A stretch of DNA of 64,000 bases from an uncultured virus (IMG/VR IMGVR_UViG_3300033520_000026) (IMGVR_UViG_3300033520_000026:1-64000); one strand, 5' to 3'. Positions 11,313 through 25,488 are shown, counted from the stretch's first letter. The notes: a model not told the origin generated them from the sequence alone. Numbers and translations are program-made.

Positions 11313-14300
11313 ATGGAATTCACCTATCCGGGCGTCTATATCAAAGAGATTCCGAGCGGTCCGGGGCCGATCACCGGCGTTACGACGTCCAACATGGGGC
11401 TCATTGGGTTTACCACCCGAGGGCCTGTCGATCAGCCTGTCCTGGTAACAAGCTTCCAGGAGTTCACAACGAAGTTTGGCACTTTCACGGAGAAGGGTCT
11501 TGCGCCGACCATGGCGTATGCCTTCTTCCAGAACAGTGGCCAGCGCATGTACATGGTGCGCGTATGCCATGACGACGCTGCGAAGTCCCTGTGGGATTAC
11601 GAGATCGATCAGACCGGCGAGATTCTGGGAATCACGGCGGTCCCGAGCGGACTGTACGATCTCCAACTCGACCACATGCCTGTCAAGGAGACCGTCCCTG
11701 GCAGCGTGACGATCACCTTCCCGAACGCGGCGATCCCTGGAAACACCAACGTGTTTCGGGATGACGGAGCCGGATCTTTCGTTTCGGTTGGCGCGGGATC
11801 TGGTGGCTCTGGGTCCATCGACTACGTGACCGGCGAGGTGTCGATCCAGTTGGCGGTTCCCGGTGAGTTCACCGGAGCGCCGAACTCGATCACGGCGGCT
11901 TACACGTATCGCGTCTTGCGCTTCGAGATGAAGTGGCCGGGCGTGGTCGGCGACAACTTCCGCGTGCAGCTCCAGAACGGCAGCGACGACTACATGGTCT
12001 CCGCACAGGCCAGGTGGACGCGGCATACCGCAGTTGTGCAGGAAGACCTAAACGGAGATCCGCTGAATCGATCTTGGTCCACGTTGGAGACATTCGCGGA
12101 CGTGGTGCTCGACGATCCGACCAGCAAGAACTACATCGTGCTCGTCATGAACGATGCGATCAACGGGTCGCAGTACGTTCGCGTCACGGACTACGGCAAT
12201 CAGATCAATCCGCCGGAGCTGGCAGGCGATGCCATCACGGGCGAGGATCTCTCGTCGATGCAGCAGCACAGCGATGGGTCTGGCACCGTGCCGGCCGCTT
12301 ACGACGGTGTTTGGAAGGGCTGGAAGTACATCCTCGCCAACGAGGTATCTCCGACCACGTTGAAGGCGGAGTTCCAATTCGTCGAGGGCAATCCTTCGAG
12401 CCCTGGAGGCCCGCTGGCGCTGTCCATCGGAATTGGCGCGAGCCCGGCTTCGGCGGTTCCGATCCTCACCTGGCAGCAGGCGGCGGTGGATGCGAACAGC
12501 GTCCAAATCACCTGCACGCTGACGGGAGCGGGAGCCACCACGTTGACCGACGACGGTGCTTCGCACATCATGTCCGGCGCGACCCAGGTCGGAACGGTGA
12601 ACTACACGACCGGAGCCATCGTTCTCGACATCACGCCCATGGCGGACACCTTCGTGGCGAACAGCCCGCTGCTTCTGGATTGCGTCTATGCGCAGCCTGT
12701 GACGGTGGGAGACGACGGACAGGGCAATGCGTACATCGTCGATCCGGCCTCGTTGACCCCGCCGCTCGTAGGCGTCCCCGGGAAGTTCCAACTCAACGCC
12801 TCTGGCACGAACACCATCGACTATGCTTCTGGAGAGCTGACTCTCACCTGGAAGATTTCCGGGAATCCCGGCGCTGGTCCTTGCGGCGTGGCGACCTCGC
12901 CCACGGCAGCGGCCAAGGTCGGCGCAGTTGGCCCATACAATCTGAACACGGGTGACTCTTTCTCGGTCAAGGTGAACGGGGCGGGCGCGGTGGCGGTGGC
13001 CTTCACGGGCACGAAGGCGACTCGGGTTGGCGGTGCGGTGTTCCCGATTGTCGCCACGACGGGCGGCGAGAACTGCACCATCGTGATCGACGGCAACTCC
13101 TACGTAGTCACGGCGGGCGCGGGCCTCACGCTTGCCCTGGAGATCGCCAACCTCATCAACGGCGTGATCTCCGGCGGTAGCGCGGTGGAGACCGGCGGCG
13201 GCACGGGCGTGGACATCAAGTCCGACAGCGCGGGCACGGGATCGTCGGTGCAGATCATCGCGGGGTCTCCGAACCTGGCGACGCTCATCGGGCATACGGC
13301 TGGCACCACGGCGGGCACGGGCAACGTGGCCAACATCGACGCGGTGTTGAACACAGAGGTGAAGGCGGCGGTGGAGCTGGCGACCACGGCGGACGTGACG
13401 GCCAACATCGACGGGTCGTTCACGATCACGTCTCCGACCACAGGTGTTCTTTCCGAGCTGGACTTCACGGTGGGCCTGACGGCGTTGGGCATCACTGTAG
13501 AGACCATCAACGGCACGGACGGCTTCGGTGGCGGACAGACGGCGGACTACTACACCGTTCCACAGAGCAGCATCTTGGGCCTGTTTGATGGCGGCTCGGA
13601 CGGAAGCGCCACGGATTCGGACGACATCGTGAGCCCGCTACTCGCGGCGGACATGCGAGCCCTGTACAGCTTTGGCCAGGTGGACGAGTTGATGCAGCTT
13701 GTGGCTGCGGATTTCCAGACGGACACCTACGTCATCGACACCTTGCTCACCTACGCAGAGCTGATGAAGGACAAGTTCGTCATTGCGACGGTGCCATTTG
13801 GCATGGAGTACCAGACGGCGGTGACATGGAAGCGCTTCACGCTGAATCGCTATTCCAGCTTCGGCGCGATGTACTACCCCCACATCAAGATCCGCGACCC
13901 GCTCACGGGCACCAATGTGGACGTGCCTCCGGGCGGTCACGTTGCTGGCGTCTATGCGCGTACCGATGCGGCGAAGAACGTGGGCAAGGCTCCGGCGGGC
14001 ATGGAAGACGGCGTTCTGGCGTGGGCCACTGGTCTTGAGTACACGTTGACTCCTGCACAGGTGGGCGTGTTGACAGAGAACAAGATCAATTGCCTTGTGC
14101 AGTGGCCGCAGACGGGACGTGTGGTTTGGGGCGCGAGGTCGCTGGACGCTTCCGGCGGCGAGTGGCCGTACCTCCAGATGCGGAGACTGTTCATGTTCGT
14201 GGAGAAGTCGGTCTTCAAATCGACACACATCCACGTCTTCAAGAACAACGGTCCGCAGCTTTGGAACGACATCAGCACGCAGTTGGTGACGTTCCTGGCT

Positions 14301-14486
14301 GGCCTCCAGCAGGGCGGATATTTCGCGGGGAACACACCGGAGGAGTCGTTCTTCGTGGTGTGCAATCGCACCAACAACCCGCAGAACACGGTCGATCAGG
14401 GCATCGTGTACTGCGACGTTGGCATCGCAGCGAACAAGCCCGCCGAGTTCATCGTGTTCAGATTCTCACAAAAAAGCTTGAAGTAA
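11313..14486 (+). CDS. Contractile tail sheath protein with large internal insertions (1057 aa)
   Basis: N-terminal YPGVYIKE..GPVDQPVLVTSFQEF..FG; C-terminal VPPGGHVAGVYARTD..KAPAG, VWGARSL, RRLFMFVEKS and KPAEFIVFRF. Confidence 0.95.
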   Translation: MEFTYPGVYIKEIPSGPGPITGVTTSNMGLIGFTTRGPVDQPVLVTSFQEFTTKFGTFTEKGLAPTMAYAFFQNSGQRMYMVRVCHDDAAKSLWDYEIDQTGEILGITAVPSGLYDLQLDHMPVKETVPGSVTITFPNAAIPGNTNVFRDDGAGSFVSVGAGSGGSGSIDYVTGEVSIQLAVPGEFTGAPNSITAAYTYRVLRFEMKWPGVVGDNFRVQLQNGSDDYMVSAQARWTRHTAVVQEDLNGDPLNRSWSTLETFADVVLDDPTSKNYIVLVMNDAINGSQYVRVTDYGNQINPPELAGDAITGEDLSSMQQHSDGSGTVPAAYDGVWKGWKYILANEVSPTTLKAEFQFVEGNPSSPGGPLALSIGIGASPASAVPILTWQQAAVDANSVQITCTLTGAGATTLTDDGASHIMSGATQVGTVNYTTGAIVLDITPMADTFVANSPLLLDCVYAQPVTVGDDGQGNAYIVDPASLTPPLVGVPGKFQLNASGTNTIDYASGELTLTWKISGNPGAGPCGVATSPTAAAKVGAVGPYNLNTGDSFSVKVNGAGAVAVAFTGTKATRVGGAVFPIVATTGGENCTIVIDGNSYVVTAGAGLTLALEIANLINGVISGGSAVETGGGTGVDIKSDSAGTGSSVQIIAGSPNLATLIGHTAGTTAGTGNVANIDAVLNTEVKAAVELATTADVTANIDGSFTITSPTTGVLSELDFTVGLTALGITVETINGTDGFGGGQTADYYTVPQSSILGLFDGGSDGSATDSDDIVSPLLAADMRALYSFGQVDELMQLVAADFQTDTYVIDTLLTYAELMKDKFVIATVPFGMEYQTAVTWKRFTLNRYSSFGAMYYPHIKIRDPLTGTNVDVPPGGHVAGVYARTDAAKNVGKAPAGMEDGVLAWATGLEYTLTPAQVGVLTENKINCLVQWPQTGRVVWGARSLDASGGEWPYLQMRRLFMFVEKSVFKSTHIHVFKNNGPQLWNDISTQLVTFLAGLQQGGYFAGNTPEESFFVVCNRTNNPQNTVDQGIVYCDVGIAANKPAEFIVFRFSQKSLK

Positions 14487-14509: not shown

Positions 14510-15001
14510 ATGAGCGAGATTCGTCGAATCCCCCAAGTCCTGTTGCAGGCTGTGAACAATGGCGGCAGCGTCAGTGGAGTTGAGCCTTCTGGCGTGGCAA
14601 TGGTGGACAGCGGCGAGACTCTGTTCAGTGGGCAGTATCGTAAGTGGACTGTCTGTACGGCGGCTGGGTTGTTTCGACTGCCTGCCGTATTGCGGTACGG
14701 CTGGAGGCTGGAGCGATTGGTGTGGAACCTGCCGGGCGTAGGCGGGATCAAGGTCAACCTGATCGATGATGATGCCGTGTCCTACGAGCTGGCCGCGATC
14801 ACGGCGGTGGCGGGCCAGTACACCCCGGAGGAGAACGGCGGGTTGCTCGTGCTTCCGGGGTGGGCGATTCAGGTGGTCGGCACGAACGCGCTGTCGAGCG
14901 CGGGCCGGCTTGTCGCGTTCGCGTCGTCGGGTTGGCGAACGGACGCATTTGAAGTCAAAGTGTTGGGCGAGGGCTTGCTCCCTCCGCCTAAGCAGCCGTA
15001 G
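14510..15001 (+). CDS. Hypothetical protein between sheath and tube
   Basis: RBS AGGAG; beta-strand-like composition. Confidence 0.65.
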   Translation: MSEIRRIPQVLLQAVNNGGSVSGVEPSGVAMVDSGETLFSGQYRKWTVCTAAGLFRLPAVLRYGWRLERLVWNLPGVGGIKVNLIDDDAVSYELAAITAVAGQYTPEENGGLLVLPGWAIQVVGTNALSSAGRLVAFASSGWRTDAFEVKVLGEGLLPPPKQP

Positions 15002-15019
15002 GGCGGCGAGGAGAATACG

Positions 15020-15559
15020 ATGCGCGCAGCAGTAGACGATCTGATGCAGGGATTCCGATTCCACGTCCGTGGCAAGAACCGCGATGGCAAGGATCTTCTC
15101 CAGCCTGGGTTCATCCGTGGCGCGGAAGGCGGCGAGCCGTTCGAGGGCGGGGCAGAGGCAGGGTTCCAGAGCGTGACCTTGCCCGAGCTGTCGTTGGAGC
15201 CGGTGGAGTACCGCGAGGGCACCTTCACCTGGACGCAGAAGTACCCTGGCCCCCCGACCGTGAGCGACTGCACGCTGATGCGCGGCATCGCCAAGAAGGA
15301 CACCGCGTTCTTCGACTGGGTTTACGGGGCAGTGACGGGCGTCGAGTACCGCATGGACGTCACGATCTGGCATTACCAGAGGGCGGAGATGGGCAGCGCA
15401 TCGAAGTCGGCGACCAGTACCGACATGCGGCGGGTGCTTTGCCACAACTGCGCTCCGACCAGAGCCAAGCCGGCGGCGGATTTCGATTCGATGTCCGGCG
15501 AGGTATCGCTGGCCGAGGTGGACTTCGCGTTGGAGAGCTTCGAACTGCTGACCAAATAG
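15020..15559 (+). CDS. Tail tube protein 1 (gp19/Afp1-type)
   Basis: AGFQSVTLPELSLEPVEYREG..KYPG..TLMRG..FFDW..VSLAEVDFALE. Confidence 0.9.
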   Translation: MRAAVDDLMQGFRFHVRGKNRDGKDLLQPGFIRGAEGGEPFEGGAEAGFQSVTLPELSLEPVEYREGTFTWTQKYPGPPTVSDCTLMRGIAKKDTAFFDWVYGAVTGVEYRMDVTIWHYQRAEMGSASKSATSTDMRRVLCHNCAPTRAKPAADFDSMSGEVSLAEVDFALESFELLTK

Positions 15560-15598
15560 TACACGAGGCGGCGGGCGAGGAGGCCGCGTGATACCCAC

Positions 15599-16162
15599 AT
15601 GCCGAGTCGCCATCCATTGGAAGATCTGCTTCAGTCCTACCGCTTTTGGCTGGTAGACATGATCCCTTCCTCGACGTTTCCGTTCTACGTGATGGGAGCC
15701 CCTATCATGGGATTCCAGTCGATCACGATGCCGGAGGTGACGCTTGAGGTGGACGAGATCAAGCAGGTCAACTCAATGTACAAGCGGTACGCCTACAGCG
15801 GCGGGAGTGTTGGGCAGATCACGCTGACGCGCGGTGCGAGGGCGTATGACGACACGTTCATGATGTGGGTAGAGCGGGCGATTCGTGGGTACGACATGGT
15901 GCCGCGCAACCTGCTGCTGTTGCAGTACACGAACATCAACGTGGCGAACGCCCTGGGGGTGAGCGTGGACCTGCCCGTGGCCATCGAGGCGTGGGAGGTC
16001 GCGCAGTTCCTGCCGGGCCGAGCTTGGTTGTTGTGGGACGCAATACCGATCCGCTACAAGGCGGGCACGGACCTGGACGCGATGACGGGGGATGTGAGCA
16101 TCATGGAACTCGATGTGCAAGCTCACGCGATGACCGAGTTTTGTCTCTTGTCTGTTACGTAA
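15599..16162 (+). CDS. Tail tube protein 2 (gp19/Afp5-type paralogue)
   Basis: GFQSITMPEVTLE..ITLTRG..W..AWLLWDAIPIRYKAGTDLDAMTGDVSIMELDV. Confidence 0.85.
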   Translation: MPSRHPLEDLLQSYRFWLVDMIPSSTFPFYVMGAPIMGFQSITMPEVTLEVDEIKQVNSMYKRYAYSGGSVGQITLTRGARAYDDTFMMWVERAIRGYDMVPRNLLLLQYTNINVANALGVSVDLPVAIEAWEVAQFLPGRAWLLWDAIPIRYKAGTDLDAMTGDVSIMELDVQAHAMTEFCLLSVT

Positions 16163-16177
16163 AGAAAACGGTACAAT
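16148..16177 (+). promoter_or_regulatory. Putative promoter of the LAGLIDADG gene; its -35 box lies in the last codons of tube gene 2
   Basis: TTGTCT-18 bp-TACAAT, then GGAGGT RBS and ATG 16198. Confidence 0.45.
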
Positions 16178-16197
16178 CTCCAAATCGGAGGTGTGCC

Positions 16198-17211
16198 ATG
16201 GGAAAGAGATTTAGTGAGCAGGAACGGATGGAAGCGGTAGCCGCATACGTTGGCGGGGAATCCTTGGGAGCGGTGGCAACTCGTATGAGTGCCTCGGTGC
16301 AGTCCGTTAGCAACTGGGTAACTGCTTCTGGGATGCGCATGAGGAGTCATGCGGCATCGCATGCGTTGGCGGTGGAGCGAGGGCTTGGACGATTCCGTGG
16401 GAGAGCGGTATGTGAGCAGGCCGAGGCGCTGTATTGCGACGGGATGGGGACGACGGCTATTGCCAAAGAAATGGGTGTTCCGGTTGGCTTTGTGATGGGC
16501 GTCATAGAGCGTGCGGGCATCCTACGTACTCGGAAAGAGGCGGCGATATTGGCAGCGGATGCGACTTCGCAGCGTATGCGCCAGTACGCGGTCAACGAGG
16601 CGGCCTTCGATGGGGAGCTAGACGTTCCACGGGCATGGGCGCTGGGGGTCATTTACGGAAACGGGTGGATTGCTCGGGCCAATGGTGTGGAGCATGGCGT
16701 AGGTGTGTGTGGGGATGAGGATGTCGTGTGCAAGGTGTTGGCGATTCTTGGCAGTGAGCATCCGGTCAATAAAAAAGGCGGATGTTTCATTGCAGAGATC
16801 GGAAGCATGCGGTTGGCACGGAACATCGCACGGTGGGGGGTGACGCCTGCTAAGGCGCGCACGCTGGTGTGGCCGAGGTCTCTGCCAGTCGAATTGGAGA
16901 CACATTTTTTGCGCGGTCTGTTCGATGCGGATGGATGGGTGGGGCGTGATCCGATGAAGCCTGTCATCGGGATTGGGCTTGCAGCGAAATCGATCATTGA
17001 GTCCATTGCAGATCGGATGGCGCAGATCGCTGGTCGGCGGCCGAAGGTTCAGCATGGCAAGGCACGTAAGAAAACGCATGCGGATAGACACACCGTTGTT
17101 CTGTATGGAGATCGTGCTCGCTTGTGGGGCCAGTGGTTGTGGGGTGATAGTATCGAGACAATGCGCAGTGAGCGTAAGCATGGGCTATTCGCGCTCCTGA
17201 GCGTGACGTGA
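16198..17211 (+). mobile_element. Free-standing LAGLIDADG homing endonuclease gene with N-terminal HTH-like repeats
   Basis: Two LAGLIDADG-type helices (AWALGVIYGNGWI and HFLRGLFDADGWV); RBS GGAGGT; ends in a copy of the tube-2 C-terminus (FALLSVT). Confidence 0.85.
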
Positions 17212-17221
17212 GGAGGACGCG

Positions 17222-17650
17222 ATGAGGAAGTTGATCGAACAGATTCAGGACGTTATTGGGTCGATAGAGATGGATGAGGCCAGTGGTGCCATGGGTAAGT
17301 CCAAGGTTCCTGACATGTTCAAGCAGATTGAGAAGAATCATTCAGAACTGAATGGTCTCATACGCAAAGTAGAGCACGAGATCTTGCTGGAGTTGGATGC
17401 CATCATGGGACTACGGGGGTTGGATGTGAATGTCGATATTTCTCCGAATGGGAATATGCTTAGTATGGAAATCGAGGTGGTCGCGCCACCCGAGGCACTG
17501 AAACCTAATACTGGCGCATATGACGAGTATTTTGAGAAATTAAGTAATTGGACAAAACGGGCGTTCCCTTGGAACGCAGCGATAGACATAAAAGGAAGTG
17601 GTAATCTCTTGATTCATGGCGTTCGGATTGTCTCAACTCAGAGGAAGTAA
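17222..17650 (+). CDS. Leader-bearing putative internal (capsid-packaged) protein; A/T-richer cassette
   Basis: N-terminus MRKLIEQIQD..MDEA; flanked by 39-bp direct repeats. Confidence 0.7.
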   Translation: MRKLIEQIQDVIGSIEMDEASGAMGKSKVPDMFKQIEKNHSELNGLIRKVEHEILLELDAIMGLRGLDVNVDISPNGNMLSMEIEVVAPPEALKPNTGAYDEYFEKLSNWTKRAFPWNAAIDIKGSGNLLIHGVRIVSTQRK

Positions 17651-17733
17651 AGCAAGGACGCTGATTATCCGCAGGACTGAGTGTTCGTCCGTGACGGAAT
17701 TCGCCCTGCTGAGCGTGACATGAGGAGGACGTG

Positions 17734-19266
17734 ATGAGACGACTGATTAAGAGACTCAACCATCTGATGGCTTCCGCGAGAGAGATTCAATACGAGGGCA
17801 AGGGCGAGAAGGCGGCGGCGGAAGAAGCCAGGCGCATCGTCAATCTCCTTTCCGTCATGATGGAGCAGGCTGGGTACGAGATTGAGTATTCGTCGAAGGC
17901 CGACGAGTGGGTGGTGTGGGTCGATGGGAAGACCGGCGGTGCTGTGACGCTGTGGAAGAATCCCAAGGGCGACTGGCAGTTGATCAGCGGCGTGCCGGAG
18001 ATGGCCAAGCTGAGCACGAAGCCGTATGCGCACAAGGTCGACTTGCTCCGCGATCCGAAGCGCAAGGAGAACCGGGAGGCGTTGCGGGCCGCGACCGCGA
18101 TAGCGGAAAAGGTCATGGACAAGACGCGGGAGGGGACGCTGACCAAGGACTTCGCGCCCAAGTTTTCGACGGCGATACGGGCACGCAAGGACATGGGGGA
18201 TCCGGGCGGGGCAGCGGCGATGGGCGAAGAGATGGCGTTTGACATGCACAAGCAGGCCCAGGCGCTGTACCTCAAGGGCTGGGACGAGCACCCGAGCCCG
18301 AATGGCAAGCGGACGGCCTACGGGCGGACCTTCAAGTTGGGGTCAGTTGACGTGCCGCTGCGCATCATTCAGGAGGACGATGCGGGGAAGGCGTGGCGCG
18401 TAGACCGCAAGGGACTGCCCACCTGGGAGGCGATGTTCGACGGCAAGGAGTTCAAGTCGGCGGCAGCGGCGGGGCAGGCTGTAGCCGGTTGGTGGAAGCA
18501 GGTCGAGGCGGCATTCGAGCGGCTGACCAAGGATGGGTACAGAGCGCACGAGGCAGCCTTCAAGGCGCTGTCCAAGGTGCGGGAAGAGGACGTGGCGCGG
18601 GAGGGGCGAGCGGCGCTGCCCGAGGCCGAGGAGATGCTCTACGTTGACCAGCAGGCGGGGTTGGCAGTGGGGCAGACCATCGAGCGGGACAACCTGCGCA
18701 TGCACCGCTTCAATTCCAGCCTGCGCGTGACGGACGTCACCAATGCGGGGAAGCGCGGCAAGAAGTGCCCCGAGTTCGCCCTGTTCAACCTGGACTACGG
18801 CCAGCGCGATCCCAAGGACGTGGCGAAGATCAACGAGGCGTTGAAGGCCATCGTGAAGGCGAAGACCTATGCGCAGGCGGTGGCCATTGCCCGTGGGGTA
18901 GCGGCGAAGGATTCACAGCGCGGGATGTCGTTTGCGAGCATTGAGGAGCGCGATCTTCGCGGGGTCGATGTGGAGCCGATGGCACCGGCGGCGGGGTCCG
19001 CGATCCAGGTCGAGACGCCGACGTTCACGCTGAAGGCGTCGCGCACGGAATTCGACGTGATGGAGAAGCCCCGGCCGGGGACGGACGGCCAGGACGTGAC
19101 GGCGGTGATTCCGCCGGTAGGCGGCGCGAAGAAGACTGCGATTGCGCGGTTCTATGCGTGGGTGGGGTCGCACCAAGCGGAGATCAAGGGCATGACGTTC
19201 CGGGAGCTGTTGCGGGCGATGTCGGCAGCGGATCTGGACTATCACGCCTACAGCATGTTGGACTGA
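17734..19266 (+). CDS. Large leader-bearing putative internal protein, multi-domain
   Basis: N-terminus MRRLIKRL; RBS GAGGAGG; typical codon usage. Confidence 0.75.
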   Translation: MRRLIKRLNHLMASAREIQYEGKGEKAAAEEARRIVNLLSVMMEQAGYEIEYSSKADEWVVWVDGKTGGAVTLWKNPKGDWQLISGVPEMAKLSTKPYAHKVDLLRDPKRKENREALRAATAIAEKVMDKTREGTLTKDFAPKFSTAIRARKDMGDPGGAAAMGEEMAFDMHKQAQALYLKGWDEHPSPNGKRTAYGRTFKLGSVDVPLRIIQEDDAGKAWRVDRKGLPTWEAMFDGKEFKSAAAAGQAVAGWWKQVEAAFERLTKDGYRAHEAAFKALSKVREEDVAREGRAALPEAEEMLYVDQQAGLAVGQTIERDNLRMHRFNSSLRVTDVTNAGKRGKKCPEFALFNLDYGQRDPKDVAKINEALKAIVKAKTYAQAVAIARGVAAKDSQRGMSFASIEERDLRGVDVEPMAPAAGSAIQVETPTFTLKASRTEFDVMEKPRPGTDGQDVTAVIPPVGGAKKTAIARFYAWVGSHQAEIKGMTFRELLRAMSAADLDYHAYSMLD

Positions 19267-19278
19267 AGGAGCACTGCC

Positions 19279-20007
19279 ATGACGACCATGAACGATCTGT
19301 TTGAGAGCATGGAGACTGCCCAGGATGAGGCGGAGTTCTTCGAGGCGATCCTGGCAGCAGACGACGATCTTCTGGACGAGGTGTTCGACGAGGAAGATGT
19401 GGAGCGTCTGGCGATCATGGCCCAGCTCATTGGTGCGGCGGAGGCGGGGGCGCTATCCGAAGACCAGGACGATATGCTGGAGGGGTTTCGGAGCTGGATG
19501 GCCAAGAAGAAGACGCAGATTGCGAGCAAGTTGCCGCCGGGCGCGAAGATGGTATTCGGCAAGATCGTGAAGGGCGGCAAGGTGGTGGGGGGCGCGGCCA
19601 AGAAGGCCGTGGCGGGGGCGCAGAAGGCGGTCCAGAAGGGCGTGGCGGCCAAGCGGGCGGTGCAGGGCGCGGCGTATCGGTTCACGGACGCGGGCAAGAA
19701 GGCCCATGCGGCGGCGAAGAAGGTGGCGGACACCAAGGGCCGCAAGGCGGGGGACGCGGCGTGGAAGGCGTCCCAGGACACCTACAAGAAGCACGTCAAG
19801 GGCGGCGAGAGCCACGCCTATGCCACGGCGCAGGCGCAGAAGGCGGGGGCGCGATCCGGCGGGGAGAAGGCGAAGGCCAAGCCGAAGGCGGGCAAGGGCA
19901 AGAAGTCGGTTGCGCCGCCTCCACAGGGAGCGGAGCCGGTGAAGAAGACGCGGAAGCGCAAGCCGAAGATGGAAGACGTGTTTGCCTATGTGCAGGCTGA
20001 AGCATAG
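19279..20007 (+). CDS. Leader-bearing protein with an acidic N-terminus and a K/A-rich, histone-H1-like C-terminus
   Basis: MTTMNDLFESME; D/E-rich first about 68 aa, then K/A/G-rich. Confidence 0.75.
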   Translation: MTTMNDLFESMETAQDEAEFFEAILAADDDLLDEVFDEEDVERLAIMAQLIGAAEAGALSEDQDDMLEGFRSWMAKKKTQIASKLPPGAKMVFGKIVKGGKVVGGAAKKAVAGAQKAVQKGVAAKRAVQGAAYRFTDAGKKAHAAAKKVADTKGRKAGDAAWKASQDTYKKHVKGGESHAYATAQAQKAGARSGGEKAKAKPKAGKGKKSVAPPPQGAEPVKKTRKRKPKMEDVFAYVQAEA

Positions 20008-20037
20008 ACGCGAACCTGAGTTCGCCCGGAGGATGAC

Positions 20038-20493
20038 ATGACAACGATGCGGACACTGATCGAGGGGTTGGTTTTGCTGGGCAAAGGAAATACTAAAAAA
20101 TCTCTTGTCAGTGGTGTTCTGCTGCGATTGGCAACGGATCTGGCGCGGAAGTGGAAATTACCCAGTGTGGCATTGGACTTCTCCAAGACACTCAACCTTG
20201 CTGGATATGACGCATCATCAAACCAGTGGGATGTGCAGTTCTCGACGGATATTGTCGATGGGCGGTGGGCAGAAATCAGTTTTACGATTAATGATGACAG
20301 GATCGAATTGCTTGCGCAGTTACTTGATGACACCGGGAAGACTTATTCTGAACAGGGCAAGAAACATGAAAAGCGGAATGCGCGTGGGAAAGTGATCATT
20401 GGACGCGTGGTTGATGAGGTGAAAGGAGTCTTGGACCGTACTGAAGATAGTGATTTGTTTGCGATGAAATTATCTGATTTTTCAGTCAGGTGA
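20038..20493 (+). CDS. Leader-bearing putative internal protein; A/T-richer cassette
   Basis: MTTMRTLIEG; bracketed by ~49-bp repeats at 20003 and 20598. Confidence 0.7.
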   Translation: MTTMRTLIEGLVLLGKGNTKKSLVSGVLLRLATDLARKWKLPSVALDFSKTLNLAGYDASSNQWDVQFSTDIVDGRWAEISFTINDDRIELLAQLLDDTGKTYSEQGKKHEKRNARGKVIIGRVVDEVKGVLDRTEDSDLFAMKLSDFSVR

Positions 20494-20632
20494 TTTGTTG
20501 AAACGATCTGTAATCACTTGGAGGAAAGCCATGACATGGAATATCAATTCCTCAAAGGATATAAGCATGACTAGGATCGCTTCTGACCAGTAAGGAACAT
20601 AGACGCGAACCTGGGTTCGCCTGGAGGATGCC

Positions 20633-21226
20633 ATGACGACGATGCGACGACTATCCGGCCTGTTGACCGAGGCGACCATGAAGCGGCAGGGCCAGATCTT
20701 GCCGACCGAGCAGCGGGACTACGGGTACTTCGGACGGATCGAGTTCCGGTTTGAAAACGCGGACGCGATCTGGGCGGAGACATTTCGCCTGATCATGTCC
20801 GAGATGCCAGACGTATCGTCGGCGGCGATCCGTAACTACCTGGACTCGAAGAGCGGGATGAACTTTGGCGATCTGGTGGCGGCGGAATTGAAGGACACGT
20901 TGCCGACCCCGGATACGGCTGCGTATGGCCGGGTGTTCAATCCCAAGATGGCGGACGTGAAGCGCGTCGTGGCGTCCGTGTTTGGCAAAAACGCCTGGGT
21001 GCGGAAGCACGTCGAGGCGTATGCCAAGGACCAGGAAGCCTCCACCAGCGGGACGATGTCGGACATTGGCCGGTGGGTGATCGCTGTTGTCGATGATTTC
21101 GAGCTGGCACAGGACCAGGAGAAGAAGAAGAACTGGAAACAGCGGGATGCGGCTTTGCACAGCTTGCAGAAGGCGGCTGACCAGTTGCTCACGACGTCGC
21201 GGGCCTGGATGGCCCAGCGGAGGTAG
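20633..21226 (+). CDS. Leader-bearing putative internal protein
   Basis: MTTMRRLSGLLTEA; RBS GGAGG. Confidence 0.75.
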   Translation: MTTMRRLSGLLTEATMKRQGQILPTEQRDYGYFGRIEFRFENADAIWAETFRLIMSEMPDVSSAAIRNYLDSKSGMNFGDLVAAELKDTLPTPDTAAYGRVFNPKMADVKRVVASVFGKNAWVRKHVEAYAKDQEASTSGTMSDIGRWVIAVVDDFELAQDQEKKKNWKQRDAALHSLQKAADQLLTTSRAWMAQRR

Positions 21227-21234
21227 GGTCACTG

Positions 21235-21672
21235 ATGGATGAACGGGCACAGGTCGCGGCGGGCATCCTGGATCGCGTGCGGGCGATGCTGCTGGAGCGT
21301 CGCCTGACGGCCCGTGAGGCCCCACAGCCGCGCCCGAGCCAGGGGGCTGCTCGTGCTACGGCTCGCCTGTGGGCGCCGCTCCTGGGGGCGAACAAGCGCC
21401 CGGTGGGGGAGGTGCGCGTGGTGGTCATCGTGCCGAACGATCCGGCGGAGGCGGCGGACGTGCATGTGCGGTGGTCGCGGATGGGCTTTGGGTTCTGGTA
21501 CGTGAAGACGGCGGACGTGGGGGTGGTGGTGGAGGCCGAGGACGCGGACCTCGCAGCGGTAGAGATGATCCTGACGGCGGTGGGCTGGACGGCAGCGGGA
21601 TCGGTCCCGTTGCGGTCGATGAACATGATGTTTCCCAAGGTGCGCCGGAGCGTGAGCGACGTAGCGCGATAA
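21235..21672 (+). CDS. Hypothetical protein
   Basis: Co-oriented, tight packing, G/C-ending codons. Confidence 0.65.
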   Translation: MDERAQVAAGILDRVRAMLLERRLTAREAPQPRPSQGAARATARLWAPLLGANKRPVGEVRVVVIVPNDPAEAADVHVRWSRMGFGFWYVKTADVGVVVEAEDADLAAVEMILTAVGWTAAGSVPLRSMNMMFPKVRRSVSDVAR

Positions 21673-21682
21673 GGAGTGAGCC

Positions 21683-22483
21683 ATGGCAACGATGCGAACA
21701 TTGGTGAAGGACATGAGGGCGCTGGTCGAGGGCGACGTGGCAGCGGGACGTGGCCACAGGAGCCTGTCCGAAGGCGTTAGTGTAGATGATGTCAAGTCGG
21801 CGTTGAACAAGTTTGTTTTGAAAAAGATGGGACGCGGGCTGCATGACTGGAAGGTTGGAATACATTCTCCTCCAATGAACGTGCGTTTTGTCTTTGGTGT
21901 TCCATGGAAAAAATATCCTGGAGAGGCGTATGATCTTGAGGATGACATCGAAGCTGTTTTAGTCAGGACGATTGGAAGTGAAAATAAAATATGGGTGTGG
22001 CGACATGACGATGTTGATAACTATGTTTACTACCAAATAGAATTTCCTAAAAAAGCGGTATCTATTTACGAGGACGTTCGAGTGGTCTGTGGCCACAGGG
22101 GCCTGTCCGAAGCACGGATCGACGAGGCCAGCGGATCGGGACGTACCTGGGCCGACTTCGAGGGCGATGCCTTGGAGATGTTCTGTAAAGAGGTGGCGGC
22201 GGGCATCAAGAAATTGGCGGGTGGCCATGCCGAGTCCGTCAATGTGGAGCGCTCGCGCAACACTGTCTGGGTGGAGTACAAGGGGCAGAATCGCAGTGAT
22301 TTCGATCTGGAGTGGCAGGGGAGTTTAGTTACGGGAACAGGGGATGGTCACGAGGTTCTGATCAACGCGAGCTGGAAAGCGGCTGATGGCCTACAGCGCG
22401 TGGAACGCGATGTTCGGATGCGGGCAGGGATGGTTACGGCACAGAATGTCGTGAATCTCTTCGCCGAGGCATTTGGCAGATGA
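21683..22483 (+). CDS. Leader-bearing putative internal protein with an in-frame A/T-richer inserted domain
   Basis: MATMRTLVKDMRALVEG; internal 24-bp direct repeats at 21750 and 22089. Confidence 0.75.
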   Translation: MATMRTLVKDMRALVEGDVAAGRGHRSLSEGVSVDDVKSALNKFVLKKMGRGLHDWKVGIHSPPMNVRFVFGVPWKKYPGEAYDLEDDIEAVLVRTIGSENKIWVWRHDDVDNYVYYQIEFPKKAVSIYEDVRVVCGHRGLSEARIDEASGSGRTWADFEGDALEMFCKEVAAGIKKLAGGHAESVNVERSRNTVWVEYKGQNRSDFDLEWQGSLVTGTGDGHEVLINASWKAADGLQRVERDVRMRAGMVTAQNVVNLFAEAFGR

Positions 22484-23058
22484 CGACCATGCGATCCCTG
22501 TTCGAGGCGGTCGAGGGGAGGGAGTGGATCTTGGATCGTCCCTGGACGGTGGGGGCGTCGGCGTATCAGGCGGCCTTGAACGTCCATGAGCCCTGGGTCG
22601 CTGAGATCAGCCCGATGCAGTACGCGCACATGAGCAAGAGTGCCAAGGCGCAGTACGACAAGAAGCGGGCGGGGGAGTGGGAGGCGTCGGCGGCGGCGAA
22701 GGATAAGTGGCGGCAGGCGGTGTTGAAGGCGTTTGCCGAGGGGAAGTTCCAGCGCAAGGACGCGGACGTGCATCCTGACGCCGACATGGCGATCTTCCTG
22801 GCGCAGCAGGCAGCGGAGAAGGATGCGGCAGCGGCGCAGGCCAAGGAGCGCGGCCGGGAGAACGCCATTACGCGGGCCGACCAGGTGAAGGTGGGCGATG
22901 TCGTGTGGGTGGTGCTCTCGGGCAGCTACCAGACGGTGACCAAAGTCTCGCAGAAGTCCGTGATGGTGACGGGCAAGTTCGGGCCGATGAAGGTCACGAT
23001 GTCGGAGAAGTCGCCGCAGTTGAACTGGAAGAGCTACAATGACCTGCATGGCAAGTAG
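22480..23058 (+). CDS. Leader-bearing putative internal protein with an SH3/KOW-like C-terminus
   Basis: MTTMRSLFEAVEG; VKVGDVVWV..VTKVSQKSVMV. Confidence 0.7.
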   Translation: MTTMRSLFEAVEGREWILDRPWTVGASAYQAALNVHEPWVAEISPMQYAHMSKSAKAQYDKKRAGEWEASAAAKDKWRQAVLKAFAEGKFQRKDADVHPDADMAIFLAQQAAEKDAAAAQAKERGRENAITRADQVKVGDVVWVVLSGSYQTVTKVSQKSVMVTGKFGPMKVTMSEKSPQLNWKSYNDLHGK

Positions 23059-23073
23059 GGATAGGAGAGAGCC

Positions 23074-23490
23074 ATGACGATGAGAACCTTGATCGAGCGG
23101 TTTGAACGGATCATGGAGGCCCGCAGTGCGAATGTCGCCATCAGGCAGATAGCGGAGTTTTCTATGGAAATTCGTGCGATCCCGCGTGTTCGATCCAACG
23201 AGATTGCGCTTGAGGACAGGAACACGGCGGAGGACGTCTATCGCAATGCCCGGCGGATCGCCGACCGAGTCTTTTCCGGTCTCCTGGACGTTGGGAACGA
23301 CGAGCTTGCCCACGAAATTGAGGACATAGCTACCGACATGGATGCCGCTTACAAGGCGTTCGAGTCGGCGTGGATGAGGGTGCGAAAGGCTGGAACCACG
23401 GCATCGGATCCATCTGCTGTGGTGGAGAGTTATGAGCGTCTACGGGGGCAGGTGGATCGTTTGAAGAAAGCCATTGGGAGGATCGGATGA
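23074..23490 (+). CDS. Leader-bearing putative internal protein
   Basis: MTMRTLIERFERIMEAR; RBS AGGAG. Confidence 0.75.
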   Translation: MTMRTLIERFERIMEARSANVAIRQIAEFSMEIRAIPRVRSNEIALEDRNTAEDVYRNARRIADRVFSGLLDVGNDELAHEIEDIATDMDAAYKAFESAWMRVRKAGTTASDPSAVVESYERLRGQVDRLKKAIGRIG

Positions 23491-24101
23491 GGCACTTGAT
23501 CGAGCGAGTGGAGCGGATCATGGAGGCCCGTGGCACGGAGGTGCTCGTGAAGGAGCTGCCGGACGTGCTGCGCAAGGCGTTGAAGGACGTGGGCTACCGG
23601 AGCCGGGACATCGCGGTGGTGCCGCAGGCGCTGGTCAGCCTGAACCCCTACGCGGGGGACGGGGAGCGGGGCTTCGCGGTGCTGGTGAACCTGGCCACGG
23701 GCGCGACCAAGACGGTGCAGGGCGACTGGGGCGGGTACAGCCCGGTGGGGAAGCCCTCTATCGACCAGGATCGTGGCGAGCATCCGCTGCCTCGGGACGG
23801 CGTGGCCATCGTGGGGTCGAGTGGCGGGCGGGGCACCTACGCGACGATCTACGTGCATCCCGACAGCGTGGTGCCGTTGCTGCCGGGGGCCGTGGAGATG
23901 ACGGATCGTGAGGCGGGCATCCTGCGGAGCATGGCGATGACGTCGAGCTATCGCAAGGAGCTGTTCGCGGACATGAAGGTGCAGCCGGGCGAGGTGGACG
24001 CGCTGGTCGAGCGTGGATGGATTGCACGGAACAAGGCAGGGGCGTTGAGCTTGACGACGGCGGGCAAGAACGCGGCTTCGGCTGCTCACGGACGACGTTA
24101 G
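23487..24101 (+). CDS. Leader-bearing putative internal protein; its 3' end is repeated three times downstream
   Basis: MRHLIERVERIMEAR; winged-helix-like C-terminus LVERGWI..LSLTTAGKNAASAAHGRR. Confidence 0.75.
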   Translation: MRHLIERVERIMEARGTEVLVKELPDVLRKALKDVGYRSRDIAVVPQALVSLNPYAGDGERGFAVLVNLATGATKTVQGDWGGYSPVGKPSIDQDRGEHPLPRDGVAIVGSSGGRGTYATIYVHPDSVVPLLPGAVEMTDREAGILRSMAMTSSYRKELFADMKVQPGEVDALVERGWIARNKAGALSLTTAGKNAASAAHGRR

Positions 24102-24110
24102 GAGAGACGA

Positions 24111-24515
24111 ATGTCCACGATGCGCAAGCTGGCTGAGCAGTTGAAGGCAGCATCCGATGACGTTGCAGGCATTGGAACGATTAGATTATTGGGAGAGTCT
24201 ATGACGAATCCGAATGAACCGTATGCAACGTCGATACGGAACGCTTGGAGTGGGTTGTCCGTGTGGGCGGATGACATCGGGAAGCGGTTGACTAAGAGTA
24301 TTGGAGATGGCGTCAAGATCGTGGGAAGTATTGGTGTAGCCAAGGGAGTGGGTGATGCTGTGGAGGTGGTATTGAGTTTTCATATGCTTGGCACGCTGGA
24401 TGAAGAAGATGTATTTGATATGGCGTTGGTCAGGTTACAGAATTTAACGAATAGCACATGGGTGAAGGCAAAGCGGAACCGAAAGTTTGCGCTTGTTGCC
24501 ACCTATGATTTCTGA
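24111..24515 (+). CDS. Leader-bearing cassette protein, paralogue of ORF 26190
   Basis: MSTMRKLAEQL; shares W..W...G..L..IG..V...G..GV..D.VE..LVATYD with 26190. Confidence 0.75.
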   Translation: MSTMRKLAEQLKAASDDVAGIGTIRLLGESMTNPNEPYATSIRNAWSGLSVWADDIGKRLTKSIGDGVKIVGSIGVAKGVGDAVEVVLSFHMLGTLDEEDVFDMALVRLQNLTNSTWVKAKRNRKFALVATYDF

Positions 24516-24596
24516 AGCTTTAGATGCTGTTGAGTCTGACAACGGCGGGCAAGAACGCGGCTTCGGCTGCTCACGGTAGATGAAAAGGAGAGCGTC

Positions 24597-25049
24597 ATGG
24601 GAATAGAGCTACAGTCCTGGAATGCGTATCAGGTGATCCCGGATGAAGGGGTTAAGAAGCTTTTGGGTGTCGTGAAGACGAATCCTGGGAAAGATGCGAA
24701 GAAGCACGCCATCGGGAAAGCGATGAAAAAGTGGGGCGTGCATGGCGCCACCATTGGTTGGCATGTGGAAGTGAGCCCAGTTGAGCAGTCCGAACAACTG
24801 GCATCGAATGGGATGCGCCAGTTGTTTGAGAGACTCCAGATGGAGTCCATGGTCAAGGTTGGCAATGAAGAAATGGCGAAGGAATTCGCAAAAGAGAAAC
24901 AGGCATTTTACGGCATGAGTGTCTTTGATGGGAAATGGTACATCGGAGATATGGAGAAGCTGAAAAAGCTCGGAATCAATAGAATTATGGATGCTTCAGG
25001 GAAAGTAGCATGGGAGCAGAAGTTCCGTTTTCAGGGTAAGGAAATTTAA
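24597..25049 (+). CDS. Cassette protein with an internal leader-like motif
   Basis: RBS AGGAG; internal NGMRQLFERLQMES; A/T-richer. Confidence 0.7.
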   Translation: MGIELQSWNAYQVIPDEGVKKLLGVVKTNPGKDAKKHAIGKAMKKWGVHGATIGWHVEVSPVEQSEQLASNGMRQLFERLQMESMVKVGNEEMAKEFAKEKQAFYGMSVFDGKWYIGDMEKLKKLGINRIMDASGKVAWEQKFRFQGKEI

Positions 25050-25089
25050 GAACGCGGCTTCGGCTGCGCACAAGTAAAAGAGGTAAGCG

Positions 25090-25425: not shown

Positions 25426-25488
25426 ACTTTTGAATATGTCATGAAATTGGATAAAAACGCGGCGGCGGCGCACGGACGGTGATGATGG

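Follow-up and report, generated by a model that had tools for sequence, protein, structure and literature searches.

The second tail tube gene of an uncultured virus raises the question why its last codons are present three times in close succession, and how an endonuclease gene and a small ORF came to lie between the copies. The analysis covered a stretch of 64,000 nucleotides (hereafter the window), in which the product of the tube gene was recognized by a Pfam search as Phage_T4_gp19 (E 1.5e-7), with an identity to its relatives of 54-100%. All three copies were found where the preliminary description had placed them (Table 1). The third is owned by no credible gene and represents an uninterrupted version of what is presumed to be the target region. 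Copies 2 and 3 match at 18/21 nt, copies 1 and 2, being the substitute and the native end, at 12/21, and copy 1 contains 10 T's against 4 in each of the other two. When measured against 8356 codons from long genes of this phage, codons used in copy 1 account for 0.12 (TCT), 0.14 (GTT), 0.36 (TGT) and 0.29 (TTT) of their synonymous sets, and codons used in copy 2 for 0.56 (GTG) and 0.55 (GCG). As had been described before, copies 2 and 3 continue into a shared direct repeat, which comprises 40 nt with 90% identity (4 mismatches) and spans the stop codon, the Shine-Dalgarno sequence GAGGAGGAC and ATGAG. A 31-nt core of this repeat, with at most 3 mismatches allowed, has exactly 2 matches in the 64-kb window, against an expectation of 0.00, while 2 matches were reached in 0 of 100 shuffles.

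Table 1. Features of the tube gene locus, with positions counted from the first nucleotide of the window
Feature	Position	Strand	Remarks
Tail tube gene 2	15599..16162	+	187 aa; hybrid of native codons 1-181, six substitute codons and TAA
Hypervariable tube codons 171-180 (ten)	16109..16138	+	directly 5' of the insertion point
Copy 1 of the tube end	16130-16162	+	MTEFCLLSVT and stop; functional end of tube gene 15599-16162
Homing-endonuclease element, 1049 bp	16142..17190	+	from alignment with unoccupied relatives L004, L028 and L029
Substitute tube end, CLLSVT and TAA	16142..16162	+	element-borne; completes the tube as ...EFCLLSVT
Hairpin	16170..16197	+	pairs the endonuclease Shine-Dalgarno (16187-16191)
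-10-like TACAAT	16172-16177	+	within the 5' arm of the hairpin
Endonuclease ORF, 337 aa	16198..17211	+	no stop of its own; terminates at the old tube TGA
AAC, Asn155	16660..16662	+	catalytic position of LAGLIDADG motif 1
Junction repeat, 40 nt, left copy	17187..17226	+	tube end, stop, Shine-Dalgarno, ATGAG
Copy 2 of the tube end	17188-17211	+	FALLSVT and stop; end of ORF 16198-17211
Displaced native end, ALLSVT and TGA	17191..17211	+	within copy 2; now the last codons of the endonuclease
ORF142	17222..17650	+	low-GC cargo; MRKLIEQ start typical of the phage group's post-tube genes
Remnant, SKDADYPQD and stop	17651..17680	+	in frame after the ORF142 TAA; a different cargo gene, in L006, has a matching 3' end
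Copy 3 of the tube end	17691-17723	+	orphan; VTEFALLSVT and TGA
Junction repeat, 40 nt, right copy	17699..17738	+	direct repeat of 17187..17226
Conserved downstream gene	17734..19266	+	adjoins the tube gene directly in unoccupied relatives

We consider it likely that this arrangement represents a free-standing homing-endonuclease element which has replaced the end of tube gene 2, together with a separate insertion of ORF142. The anatomy of the element is demonstrated by the comparison with relatives. It had been predicted that endonuclease-free relatives would end in EFALLSVT, followed directly by the homologue of gene 17734, and this form was recovered in L004 (tube identity to the window 97%), L028 and L029 (both 95%); gene 17734 is 100% identical to that of L004 over 17739-17938. 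The alignments place the insertion point at the boundary of a Phe and an Ala codon, seven codons ahead of the tube-2 stop, with an ambiguity of one Phe codon in the ends of the element (TTT 16139-16141 or TTC 17188-17190). The 21 nt of the displaced end in copy 2 match the ends of the unoccupied relatives L006, L028 and L029 at 20/21 and that of L004 at 17/21, whereas copy 1 matches the ends of these same relatives at 10-11/21 (11/21 for L006, L028 and L029). None of the 19 endonuclease-free contigs carries the T-rich ending. The proposal that the endonuclease entered the tube gene with a differently spelled end and reads into the displaced original one is supported by this absence and by L004, L028 and L029. 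The TGA of the displaced end overlaps the Shine-Dalgarno sequence of the next gene. The GC3 of the element is 0.60, versus 0.80-0.86 for the core genes.

Repeated gene ends could also arise when occupied and unoccupied variants are merged in a chimeric metagenome contig, and the site is indeed polymorphic within single runs, while ORF142 was covered by none of the four runs that were compared. Such an assembly artefact is nevertheless very improbable, considering that the whole arrangement recurs in L003, a separately filed viral record, with 1 mismatch in 12,561 nt, that the endonuclease layout is repeated in L005, L032, L039 and contigs of runs X1, X2 and X6, and that the sequence differences among the three copies are ordered. 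LAGLIDADG genes are often located in introns or inteins, and the endonuclease ORF does end in frame with the old codons of the tube, but we regard it as improbable in the extreme that the gene belongs to a group I intron or an intein: a search of 15000-19000 against Rfam yielded 0 matches at E <= 1, the tube ORF already terminates in a TAA (16160-16162) ahead of the endonuclease, the length of the element is no multiple of 3, and the endonuclease has its own Shine-Dalgarno sequence and ATG in a frame that differs from that of the tube body. Hence Rfam recognized no self-splicing RNA fold, and the insertion is not an in-frame one uninterrupted by a stop.

The element was found in 5 of the 24 related contigs with a visible tube end, being the window, L003, L032, L005 (where it measures 1045 bp) and L039 (1047 bp). 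These occupied contigs represent three tube lineages and share one codon junction, between EF and A(T). A substitute gene end is present in every copy, and in none does the endonuclease have a stop of its own; the substitute/native pairs are CLLSVT/ALLSVT, CLFSVS/ALLSVQ and SLLTPL/TLLSPL. The tube ORF is completed to 187 aa by CLLSVT (window and L032), to 187 aa by CLFSVS (L005) and to 179 aa by SLLTPL (L039), in each case followed by a stop. Judged by these alignments, occupied and unoccupied alleles alternate at one fixed site in all three lineages, which is the presence/absence polymorphism that characterizes a homing element. The same was seen in Logan contigs from three runs of three studies, which, aligned at 88% likeness, join across the element as unoccupied forms (X1, 16120->17709; X7, 16140->17712; X2, 16141->17194, the latter with only 24 nt on the shorter side of the joint). 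Runs X1 and X2 contained endonuclease-bearing contigs alongside the unoccupied ones.

In a comparison of the window with L032, the substitute end (100% identical) and leader are the same at 56/56 positions and the endonuclease body is 98.1% identical, compared to 96.7% for the tube body and only 66.7% for the 33 nt left of the insertion. By this likeness the element looks mobile. The divergence of the endonuclease does track that of the tube (endonuclease/tube identities of 96/96%, 55/75% and 47/59%), a parallel that also fits a long vertical co-descent with losses. Directly upstream of the insertion point the tube gene is unusually variable. The nucleotide diversity of tube nt 514-543 (window 16112-16141), which cover most of codons 171-180, is 0.338, versus 0.02-0.19 for the 17 other 30-nt bins. 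Among 6 close relatives, codons 171-180 showed 63 nonsynonymous and 33 synonymous codon differences, against 116 and 320, respectively, for codons 1-170.

The spelling of the substitute end, which matches that of L005 at 16/21 nt, may be explained in more than one way. Besides immunity to cleavage, a promoter of the endonuclease is a possible explanation, as the substitute end contains the -35-like hexamer of the sequence TTGTCT-18-TACAAT at 16148-16177, in a scan that was weak (3 matches versus 1.5 expected). The first substituted position is a Cys or Ser also in endonuclease-free tubes of other lineages (L007, L018-L020) and therefore the end may be a foreign natural allele instead of a purpose-made recoding. 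It is followed by a leader of 35 nt that is conserved across lineages. A hairpin at the ribosome-binding site was predicted in all three tube lineages, with a dG of -15.3 (z -3.4) for the window, -19.5 (z -5.4) for L005 and -16.9 (z -2.9) for L039; compensatory changes were observed in 0 of 23 pairs among these 3 sequences only.

The endonuclease itself has two helix-turn-helix modules in its N-terminal part, then a core with double LAGLIDADG motifs, and a tail that is disordered. It matched Pfam HTH_23 and LAGLIDADG_3 (23.2 bits in the protein search and 25.7 bits in the genome scan, at a cut-off of 22.5) as well as the endonuclease family phrog_4645 (3.8e-16). The motifs are ALGVIYGNGW (residues 148-157) and LRGLFDADGW (238-247). 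In the predicted structure (pLDDT 80.7, with residues 318-337 below 50) strands and helices come after each of the two helices at 143-155 and 231-245, in keeping with the beta-beta-alpha-beta-beta-alpha unit that follows either LAGLIDADG helix in this class, and the model has the fold of a monomeric, double-motif LAGLIDADG enzyme. A Foldseek comparison retrieved I-Tsp061I, I-DmoI, PI-PfuI, PI-SceI, I-OnuI and I-AniI, with TM-scores by target of 0.59-0.66 overall. The core folds of I-Tsp061I (2dch; E 2.4e-7) and I-DmoI (2vs7, 4unc and others; TMt 0.63-0.66) match the predicted core with E-values of 2.4e-7 to 5e-5. The differences are that the identity is only 14-20%, that the window protein adds around 130 N-terminal residues with the two helix-turn-helix modules, and that it has an Asn at the catalytic position of motif 1. 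In all seven family proteins (7/7) the terminal tail is local and tube-like, and agrees with one of the known tube lineages.

In LAGLIDADG enzymes the penultimate residue of each motif is acidic, and is the catalytic residue that binds metal. The family has such a residue in both motifs, with Asp245 in motif 2 (FDADGW) invariant (7/7), but the window copy has one of the two sites: at motif 1 an Asp is kept in P0003-P0006 (4/7) and an Asn is found in the window, P0001 and P0002 (3/7). Given this replacement the window enzyme may be inactive, may nick or may only bind. It is conceivable, although we doubt it, that the element is a fossil that no longer cuts and spreads only by ordinary recombination, and that it persists because its deletion would harm both the tube end and the start region downstream, or else because of a reuse for DNA binding or repression. 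Such a fossil would agree with Asn155, with the intact target-like orphan tolerated 500 bp away and with the joint drop of endonuclease and tube identities. In addition, the left half of the presumed target adjoins the leader of the endonuclease, which resembles the I-TevI operator arrangement (PMC2988022). However, the ORF is intact and constrained (19 synonymous versus 12 nonsynonymous codon differences from L032), the likeness of the element between the window and L032 exceeds that of its flanks, and occupied and unoccupied alleles occur together in two runs. Moreover, enzymes that cut a single strand can still drive homing.

For an active homing element we infer the following course of events. 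In a mixed infection the enzyme would cut unoccupied tube alleles around the junction of EF and ALLSVT, upon which repair, with the occupied genome as template, would copy the element. The target would be split by the insertion, and the respelled end would keep the left junction from rebuilding it and so provide immunity. The hairpin, with the -10-like box in its 5' arm, may hide the ribosome-binding site of the endonuclease. Since ORF142 is situated to the right of the endonuclease and ahead of gene 17734, the first long homology on that side, it would be co-copied into an unoccupied genome. Against this course of events speaks copy 3, an uninterrupted target-like site in the same genome, which an active enzyme of such specificity should cut.

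The layout matches that of two eukaryotic systems, shrunk to a replacement of six codons: the carried alternative 3' end completes the host ORF in frame, and the displaced fragment lies behind the endonuclease, starts where the element was inserted and resembles the unoccupied alleles more than the carried copy does. No phage description of such an end-replacing endonuclease was found in the literature searched. WHO elements of Torulaspora yeasts (Osborne, Monnin and Wolfe, bioRxiv 10.64898/2026.08.13.744650) likewise have a LAGLIDADG gene just downstream of an essential host gene, which they keep whole by carrying an alternative version of its 3' part. They also have a displaced native 3' fragment behind the endonuclease (beginning at the cut site in WHO), coexisting occupied and unoccupied alleles, an unusually variable target region in the host gene and clusters formed by repeated entry beside it. 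On the other hand, WHO elements reside in the yeast nucleus, replace half a gene and encode a C-terminal zinc finger, whereas the element of the phage replaces 6 codons and encodes N-terminal helix-turn-helix modules; unlike in WHO, its endonuclease ORF is not closed by its own stop but extends into the displaced fragment, and there is no nuclease in the second unit, ORF142. Whereas cleavage and an arms race were demonstrated for WHO, they are presumed for the window element. In the 'gene hybrids' of fungal mitochondria, described in PMC3630166 for atp6 of Allomyces macrogynus and atp6, atp9, cox2 and nad3 of Glomus, a C-terminal portion inserted with a LAGLIDADG (in these mORFs also GIY-YIG) ORF replaces the native end, and the downstream native C-terminal part is, as in the window, closer to unoccupied relatives than the inserted copy. 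The mORFs are mitochondrial, and their inserted ends of 50-240 nt are read as horizontally acquired from another species, whereas the substitute ends of the three tube lineages follow the local tube tail. Free-standing T4-type endonucleases resemble the element as intron-less genes in or beside essential phage genes with co-conversion of flanking DNA, but are GIY-YIG or HNH enzymes located between genes or splitting a gene; the passages of the review covered (PMC2988022) describe no carried substitute end with a stranded native end.

ORF142 (GC 0.46, GC3 0.54) had been proposed to have inserted by the same logic, a proposal that we could not support in this form. It has no Pfam or PHROG family and no nuclease signature in either database, and its sole relatives are the C-terminal domains of P0008 and P0009, ordinary post-tube genes. 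It is missing from L032, L004, L028 and L029. Because the endonuclease of L032 is followed directly by the 17734 homologue, without ORF142, and L006 has another cargo plus an orphan EFNPLSVT and stop without an endonuclease, ORF142 represents a separate event. Furthermore, the tube-end copy flanking it is not recoded and the start of the orphan lies 12 nt upstream of where the endonuclease was inserted. ORF142 would then be a second, independent insertion of a low-GC module from the pool of post-tube genes of this phage group, with a remnant of an earlier cargo gene (17657-17680 match the end of L006 6576-7181 at 22/24 nt) and the orphan tube end on its 3' side. Most likely the orphan is the trace of an old non-homologous join, which later spread by recombination in the junction repeats of 40 nt; recombination between these two repeats could also lead to the loss of ORF142. 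The best analogue for such gain and loss can be found in PeSLs, where direct repeats of a short regulatory sequence flank small ORFan genes of variable regions, which are inserted, deleted or swapped by recombination between these repeats. PeSLs consist of promoter and terminator stem-loops, whereas the repeats that bracket ORF142 contain a gene end, a Shine-Dalgarno sequence and a start, and scans found no promoter or terminator within them; unlike for PeSLs, mini-circles are no part of the evidence.

Alternatively, ORF142 and copy 3 could be the relic of an older end-replacing element that displaced VTEFALLSVT and its stop, before the endonuclease element displaced ALLSVT and its stop in a second step, as in a WHO cluster. 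The order fits the WHO model as given in the preprint, with the newest element beside the host gene and displaced 3' fragments between the elements; a second displaced end is indeed present and L006 shows the cargo-plus-orphan pattern at the same site. We consider this unlikely, given that the unit in question lacks a nuclease signature, that Pfam and PHROGs recognized no nuclease family in 16 of the post-tube ORFs of the window besides the endonuclease or in 5 ORFs of relatives, that the relatives of ORF142 are confined to ordinary post-tube genes, and that the copy brought with it has a shifted start and was not respelled. A scan of the whole 133-kb record for HNH, HNH_3, GIY-YIG and LAGLIDADG_3 gave the LAGLIDADG gene at the tube site as the sole match over the cut-off. 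This also bears on the suggestion that homing endonucleases may be linked to the stacking of cassettes at 24044-25482, which is borne out in part: no nuclease was found there, but the manner of growth agrees, and the latter does speak for an older element beside the tube gene. In relative G001 the gene has as its functional end the sequence that forms the second orphan of that stack, so that newer cassettes must have been inserted between the body of the gene and its old end, and the orphans become shorter and more diverged with distance.

The tail region lies in the window, the first 64 kb of a linear 133-kb viral record, for which a completeness of 72% is estimated, and 3' of its tube genes follows a long run of small genes of unassigned function, many of which begin with MRKLIE.. 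or MTTMR... The GenBank phage collection yielded no relatives, neither by DNA (4.8 kb, distant mode) nor by tube protein, and all relatives used here come from IMG/VR and metagenome contigs.

Features of the tail region and the basis of their assignment
Feature	Coordinates	Basis
Tail sheath gene	11313-14486	Pfam Phage_sheath_1 and PHROG tail families
Tube gene 1	15020-15559	Pfam Phage_T4_gp19 and PHROG tail families
Tube gene 2	15599-16162	Pfam Phage_T4_gp19 and PHROG tail families
Copy 1 of the tube end (MTEFCLLSVT*)	16130-16162	direct sequence reading
Inserted element (1049 bp)	16142-17190	
Endonuclease ORF (337 aa)	16198-17211	Pfam HTH_23 and LAGLIDADG_3, PHROG
Divergent patch in endonuclease gene	17113-17175	
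Copy 2 (FALLSVT*)	17188-17211	direct sequence reading
ORF142 (cargo gene)	17222-17650	
Copy 3 (VTEFALLSVT*, orphan)	17691-17723	direct sequence reading
Gene 17734 (conserved downstream gene)	17734-19266	
68-nt direct repeat	19984-20051/20579-20646	
Low-GC ORF bracketed by the 68-nt repeat	20038-20493	
Anchor gene of the cassette stack	23487-24101	
Cassette stack	24044-25482	
Junction duplication	24044-24091/24529-24576	
Shorter orphans	25050-25077; 25455-25482	

The preliminary description had noted that the C-terminal end of tube gene 2 is present three times, and all three copies were confirmed. Copies 2 and 3 lie within a 40-nt direct repeat with 4 mismatches, which extends from the last seven codons across the stop and the Shine-Dalgarno sequence to ATGAG. 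The 31-nt core of this repeat (at most 3 mismatches) occurs at two places in the window, namely the two copies, where none is expected and none of 100 shuffles reached two. Copy 1 encodes the peptide of copy 2 with Cys for Ala, at a nucleotide match of 12/21; it contains 10 T versus 4 in copy 2 and is spelled in codons uncommon in this phage. By their GC3, the endonuclease ORF (0.60) and ORF142 (0.54) are set apart from the core genes (0.80-0.86).

The endonuclease had been proposed to have inserted with a recoded end and to have captured the original tube end as its own, which predicts that endonuclease-free relatives carry EFALLSVT followed directly by the homologue of gene 17734. Searches by tube protein, tube alignment and endonuclease alignment gave 24 contigs with a readable tube end (window included), five with and 19 without the endonuclease. 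The predicted order was seen exactly in the closest unoccupied contigs, L004 (tube 97% identical), L028 and L029 (95%), and none of the 19 unoccupied contigs had the T-rich ending that had been named as refuting the proposal. The ends of unoccupied relatives (L006, L028 and L029) were matched by copy 2 at 20/21 nt and by copy 1 at 11/21. The alignment with unoccupied relatives thus supports the part of the interpretation that concerns the endonuclease. The occupied contigs are the window, its near-twin L003, L032 (tube 96%), L005 (75%) and L039 (59%); in all five the insertion point is one identical codon junction, with a substitute end 5' and a native end 3' of the endonuclease (CLLSVT/ALLSVT, CLFSVS/ALLSVQ and SLLTPL/TLLSPL). 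Beyond the window the endonuclease family comprised 6 clusters among 5.8 billion proteins, and each of the seven family members terminates in a tube-like tail (FALLSVT in three, FALLSVQ in two, FTLLSPL and FRLLSALDPI in one each) that fits the tube ends of known lineages, for example L016 and L021. A group I intron or intein could be ruled out, given that the tube ORF is closed by TAA, that the element measures 1049 bp and that the endonuclease ORF begins at a start codon of its own, out of frame with the tube ORF; an Rfam scan of 15000-19000 gave no match.

The three substitute ends match one another at 16, 12 and 11 of 21 nt, about as well as each matches its own native end (12, 10 and 13 of 21), and their peptides follow the local tube tail in each lineage, which argues that the end travels with the element and remains a working tube tail. 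It is reasonable to infer that the end was recoded for immunity, since an end equal to the native one would restore the target at the left junction. Alternatively, it may represent a foreign natural allele, as is argued for the inserted gene ends of Allomyces and Glomus (PMC3630166); endonuclease-free tubes of other lineages (L007, L018-L020) also have Cys or Ser where the substituted stretch begins. Its spelling may, as another alternative, reflect a -35-like hexamer of a putative endonuclease promoter.

Between substitute end and endonuclease lies a 35-nt leader, the conservation of which exceeds that of the endonuclease protein. In all three lineages a hairpin is predicted that pairs the Shine-Dalgarno sequence, up to the base preceding the AUG (-15.3, -19.5 and -16.9 kcal/mol; z-scores -3.4, -5.4 and -2.9). 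Its 5' arm contains a -10-like box and the substitute codons a -35-like hexamer (TTGTCT, 18 nt, TACAAT in the window; a closer match in L039), and the promoter scan gave 3 hits versus 1.5 expected, which alone is not above chance. On read-through transcripts from the tube gene the ribosome-binding site would be hidden in the hairpin and on transcripts begun at the -10-like box it would be exposed, an arrangement described for I-TevI, segB and Aeh1 mobE (PMC2988022). Considering that the alignment of three sequences held no compensatory pairs (0/23), hairpin control of endonuclease translation stays a prediction.

The Pfam match of the endonuclease to LAGLIDADG_3 was barely above cut-off, that to the endonuclease PHROG reached 3.8e-16, and sequence comparison with the PDB gave only chance-level matches (2dch, E 0.26), so that its placement required a search by fold. 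The AlphaFold model (7 homologues in the alignment, mean pLDDT 80.7) consists of two N-terminal three-helix modules and two alpha-beta-beta-alpha-beta-beta-alpha units, and its top Foldseek matches in the PDB were all LAGLIDADG proteins (the TliVMA intein endonuclease domain, I-Tsp061I, PI-PfuI, PI-SceI, I-DmoI, I-OnuI and I-AniI). The final 20 residues, including the seven derived from the tube, had a pLDDT below 50, which makes the captured tail look like a passive product of read-through outside the fold. Motif 2 (DADG) is invariant in the seven aligned family members, and motif 1 reads GNG in the window and in the family members P0001 and P0002 and GDG in the remaining four. A LAGLIDADG protein that has lost one catalytic Asp would at best nick DNA or merely bind it. 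The ORFs of the window and L032 show 19 synonymous versus 12 nonsynonymous differences, and on this comparison the gene is under constraint despite the GNG. With copy 3, the genome that encodes the endonuclease also contains a target-like site without interruption, which would be more easily tolerated if the enzyme of the window were impaired. The endonuclease genes of the window and L032 are 98% identical except for a 63-nt patch near the 3' end, where identity falls to 65%, and P0002 has the L032 version of this patch; the gene thus reads as a mosaic.

Between the window and L032, substitute end and leader are identical at 56/56 positions, the endonuclease body is 98.1% and the tube body 96.7% identical, and the 33 nt immediately left of the insertion only 66.7%. 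The same element therefore abuts different tube alleles. Among Logan contigs, which were placed at 88% likeness and so show presence only, unoccupied joins were found in three public runs from three studies, X1 (side 42), X7 (side 241) and X2, the last being weak because its shorter side is only 24, and endonuclease-bearing contigs in X1, X2 and X6; both states thus occur in X1 and X2. The identities of endonuclease and tube drop in step (96/96, 55/75 and 47/59%), which speaks against recent cross-lineage spread and also fits long co-descent with repeated loss. As a signal of co-conversion the comparison with L004 was not distinctive (identity 0.93-1.00 per 100-nt bin around the insertion).

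In a comparison of six close tubes, the last 30-nt bin before the insertion had a nucleotide diversity of 0.338, versus 0.02-0.19 in the other bins. Tube codons 171-180 showed 63 nonsynonymous and 33 synonymous differences in 150 codon pairs, and codons 1-170 showed 116 and 320 in 2355, counts in which the pairs are not independent and stem from only five haplotypes. Three readings fit this hypervariable patch: escape from cleavage, as in the WHO/FBA1 case of Torulaspora yeasts (bioRxiv 10.64898/2026.08.13.744650), conversion tracts brought in from elsewhere, or a tail under loose constraint. The endonuclease-free contigs L007 (6541-6615) and L008 (6530-6585), with tubes 72% identical, have differing and longer C-termini (EFCMFTAEQ...DVVL and AFTELRIFSAREGLAGRF), and homology to other tubes ceases around 30-100 nt before the end, so that the tube 3' end has also been replaced by other routes. 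The L007 tail was considered as the scar of a lost endonuclease and rejected, as blastn and tblastn against the sequences compared here showed no likeness to any endonuclease element or other locus.

In L032 the endonuclease is followed directly by the homologue of gene 17734, and L006, which lacks the endonuclease, carries another cargo gene (201 aa), behind which lie an orphan of its own (EFNPLSVT*) and the same junction repeat. Among 14 loci scanned, orphan tube ends were confined to two lineages, the window's and that of L006. Comparison of the loci indicates that the insertion of ORF142 is an event separate from that of the endonuclease. The proposal that ORF142 entered by the same end-replacement logic could not be substantiated, considering that L032 has the endonuclease without ORF142 and that ORF142 matches no nuclease family. 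The two cargo genes have only the MRKLIEQ start and the 3' flank in common; the TAA of ORF142 is followed by ten in-frame codons (SKDADYPQD*) that agree with the 3' end of the L006 cargo gene at 22/24 nt, a remnant which suggests that the gene interior was swapped within older flanks. ORF142 has no Pfam or PHROG family and a word search returned only itself; HMMER over 1.8 billion representatives found two relatives, P0008 and P0009, in both of which the ORF142-like part is the C-terminal domain (about half). The N-terminal part resembles that of gene 17734 in P0008 and the first post-tube gene of L007 in P0009, which points to domain shuffling among post-tube genes and to ORF142 as a module of the phage group's own variable gene pool. 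Under the double-strand-break repair model in its standard form, the right-hand side of a break in an unoccupied L004-type genome would not meet long homology until past copy 3, and endonuclease and ORF142 would then be copied jointly into that genome; recombination between the two 40-nt repeats could subsequently remove ORF142 and yield the L032 form. The closest known process for such gain and loss is PeSL-mediated shuffling. Contigs of 4 public runs leave 17249-17674 uncovered and have no bearing either way on ORF142.

Further junction duplications surround low-GC ORFs elsewhere in the window, and shorter orphans are also present. One of these duplications, a 68-nt direct repeat (81% identical) that contains a gene end, a small GC hairpin, a Shine-Dalgarno sequence and ATGACNACGATGCG, brackets an ORF with a GC3 of 0.51, and in L004 this slot is taken by a different 104-aa gene. 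In the cassette stack, three low-GC cassettes alternate with orphan copies of the anchor gene's 3' end, one behind each cassette. In the related locus G002 (L052) the anchor gene is followed by an ordinary 460-aa gene and no cassette, and in G001 (L051) by a single cassette, which corresponds to the third of the window, and a single orphan. The functional anchor end of G001 equals the window's second orphan (25050-25077), which argues that the insertion of two newer cassettes separated the anchor body from its old end and that the newest cassette is nearest the gene, as described for WHO clusters (bioRxiv 10.64898/2026.08.13.744650). Pfam and PHROGs revealed no nuclease family in the cassette and cargo ORFs (16 window ORFs besides the endonuclease and 5 from relatives). 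Among four families tried, no second endonuclease above cut-off was found in the 133-kb record, itself an estimated 72% complete (HNH gave one sub-threshold match at 112041, HNH_3 and GIY-YIG none). The suggested link between homing endonucleases and stacking therefore holds for its form, in that the end-replacement logic common to tube end and stacks is real on the G001/G002 comparison; a causal role of a homing endonuclease in the stacks is unproven, given the lack of nuclease families in the cassettes.

Endonuclease genes of phages are usually described between genes or within introns and inteins. A full-text literature search found no phage element described as carrying a substitute end for its host gene, and none was met in passages of a survey of phage nuclease genes (PMC10448857). 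The closest known systems are the WHO elements (bioRxiv 10.64898/2026.08.13.744650) and the fungal mitochondrial mORF gene hybrids (PMC3630166), and with respect to regulation and co-conversion the T4-type free-standing endonucleases (PMC2988022). A 2026 paper on endonuclease-driven segmental amplification in phage T6 indicates that such enzymes can remodel neighbouring DNA.

The observations can be combined in one joint reading, which we consider rather unlikely to hold as a whole. The 3' ends of tail-operon genes would serve as entry ports for gene gain in this phage group, with the break supplied by an endonuclease of this type; nuclease-free cargo flanked by stranded gene ends would be copied along with the endonuclease or in trans, and cargo genes would pile up beside the anchor gene, with the latest arrival adjacent to it. 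Immediately left of the cut site, the tube tail would diversify to escape cleavage, a phage counterpart of the WHO/FBA1 arms race, and the respelled end would serve a dual purpose, since it would prevent self-cleavage and also contribute the -35 box of a promoter specific to the endonuclease. If cargo genes ride such breaks, this would offer one concrete mechanism for the build-up of ORFan cassettes in the variable regions of large phages.

The element resides in an essential structural gene, for which it pays with a six-codon spare end, and it extends to phages the end-replacing design of fungal mitochondria and a yeast nuclear locus. A minimal testable model is at hand, as one genome offers three defined substrates (a split target, a junction with altered spelling and an orphan copy that is intact). 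The case also accounts for a class of short duplicated gene ends that have been puzzling in the annotation of phages, and the last seven residues of the endonuclease and the small 'extra' tube tail should be annotated as footprints rather than functional domains.

The tail sheath protein is unusually long (1057 aa), with recognisable sheath domains only at residues 580-1055 and a Gly/Thr/Ala-rich middle part that matches nothing. Dozens of the post-tube small genes across the group (window 17222-26200, loci L004-L025) share a start motif (MRKLIE, MTTMRxL or MKNLIE) and are otherwise unrelated in content; this start may act as a linker in recombination or as a signal for protein sorting.
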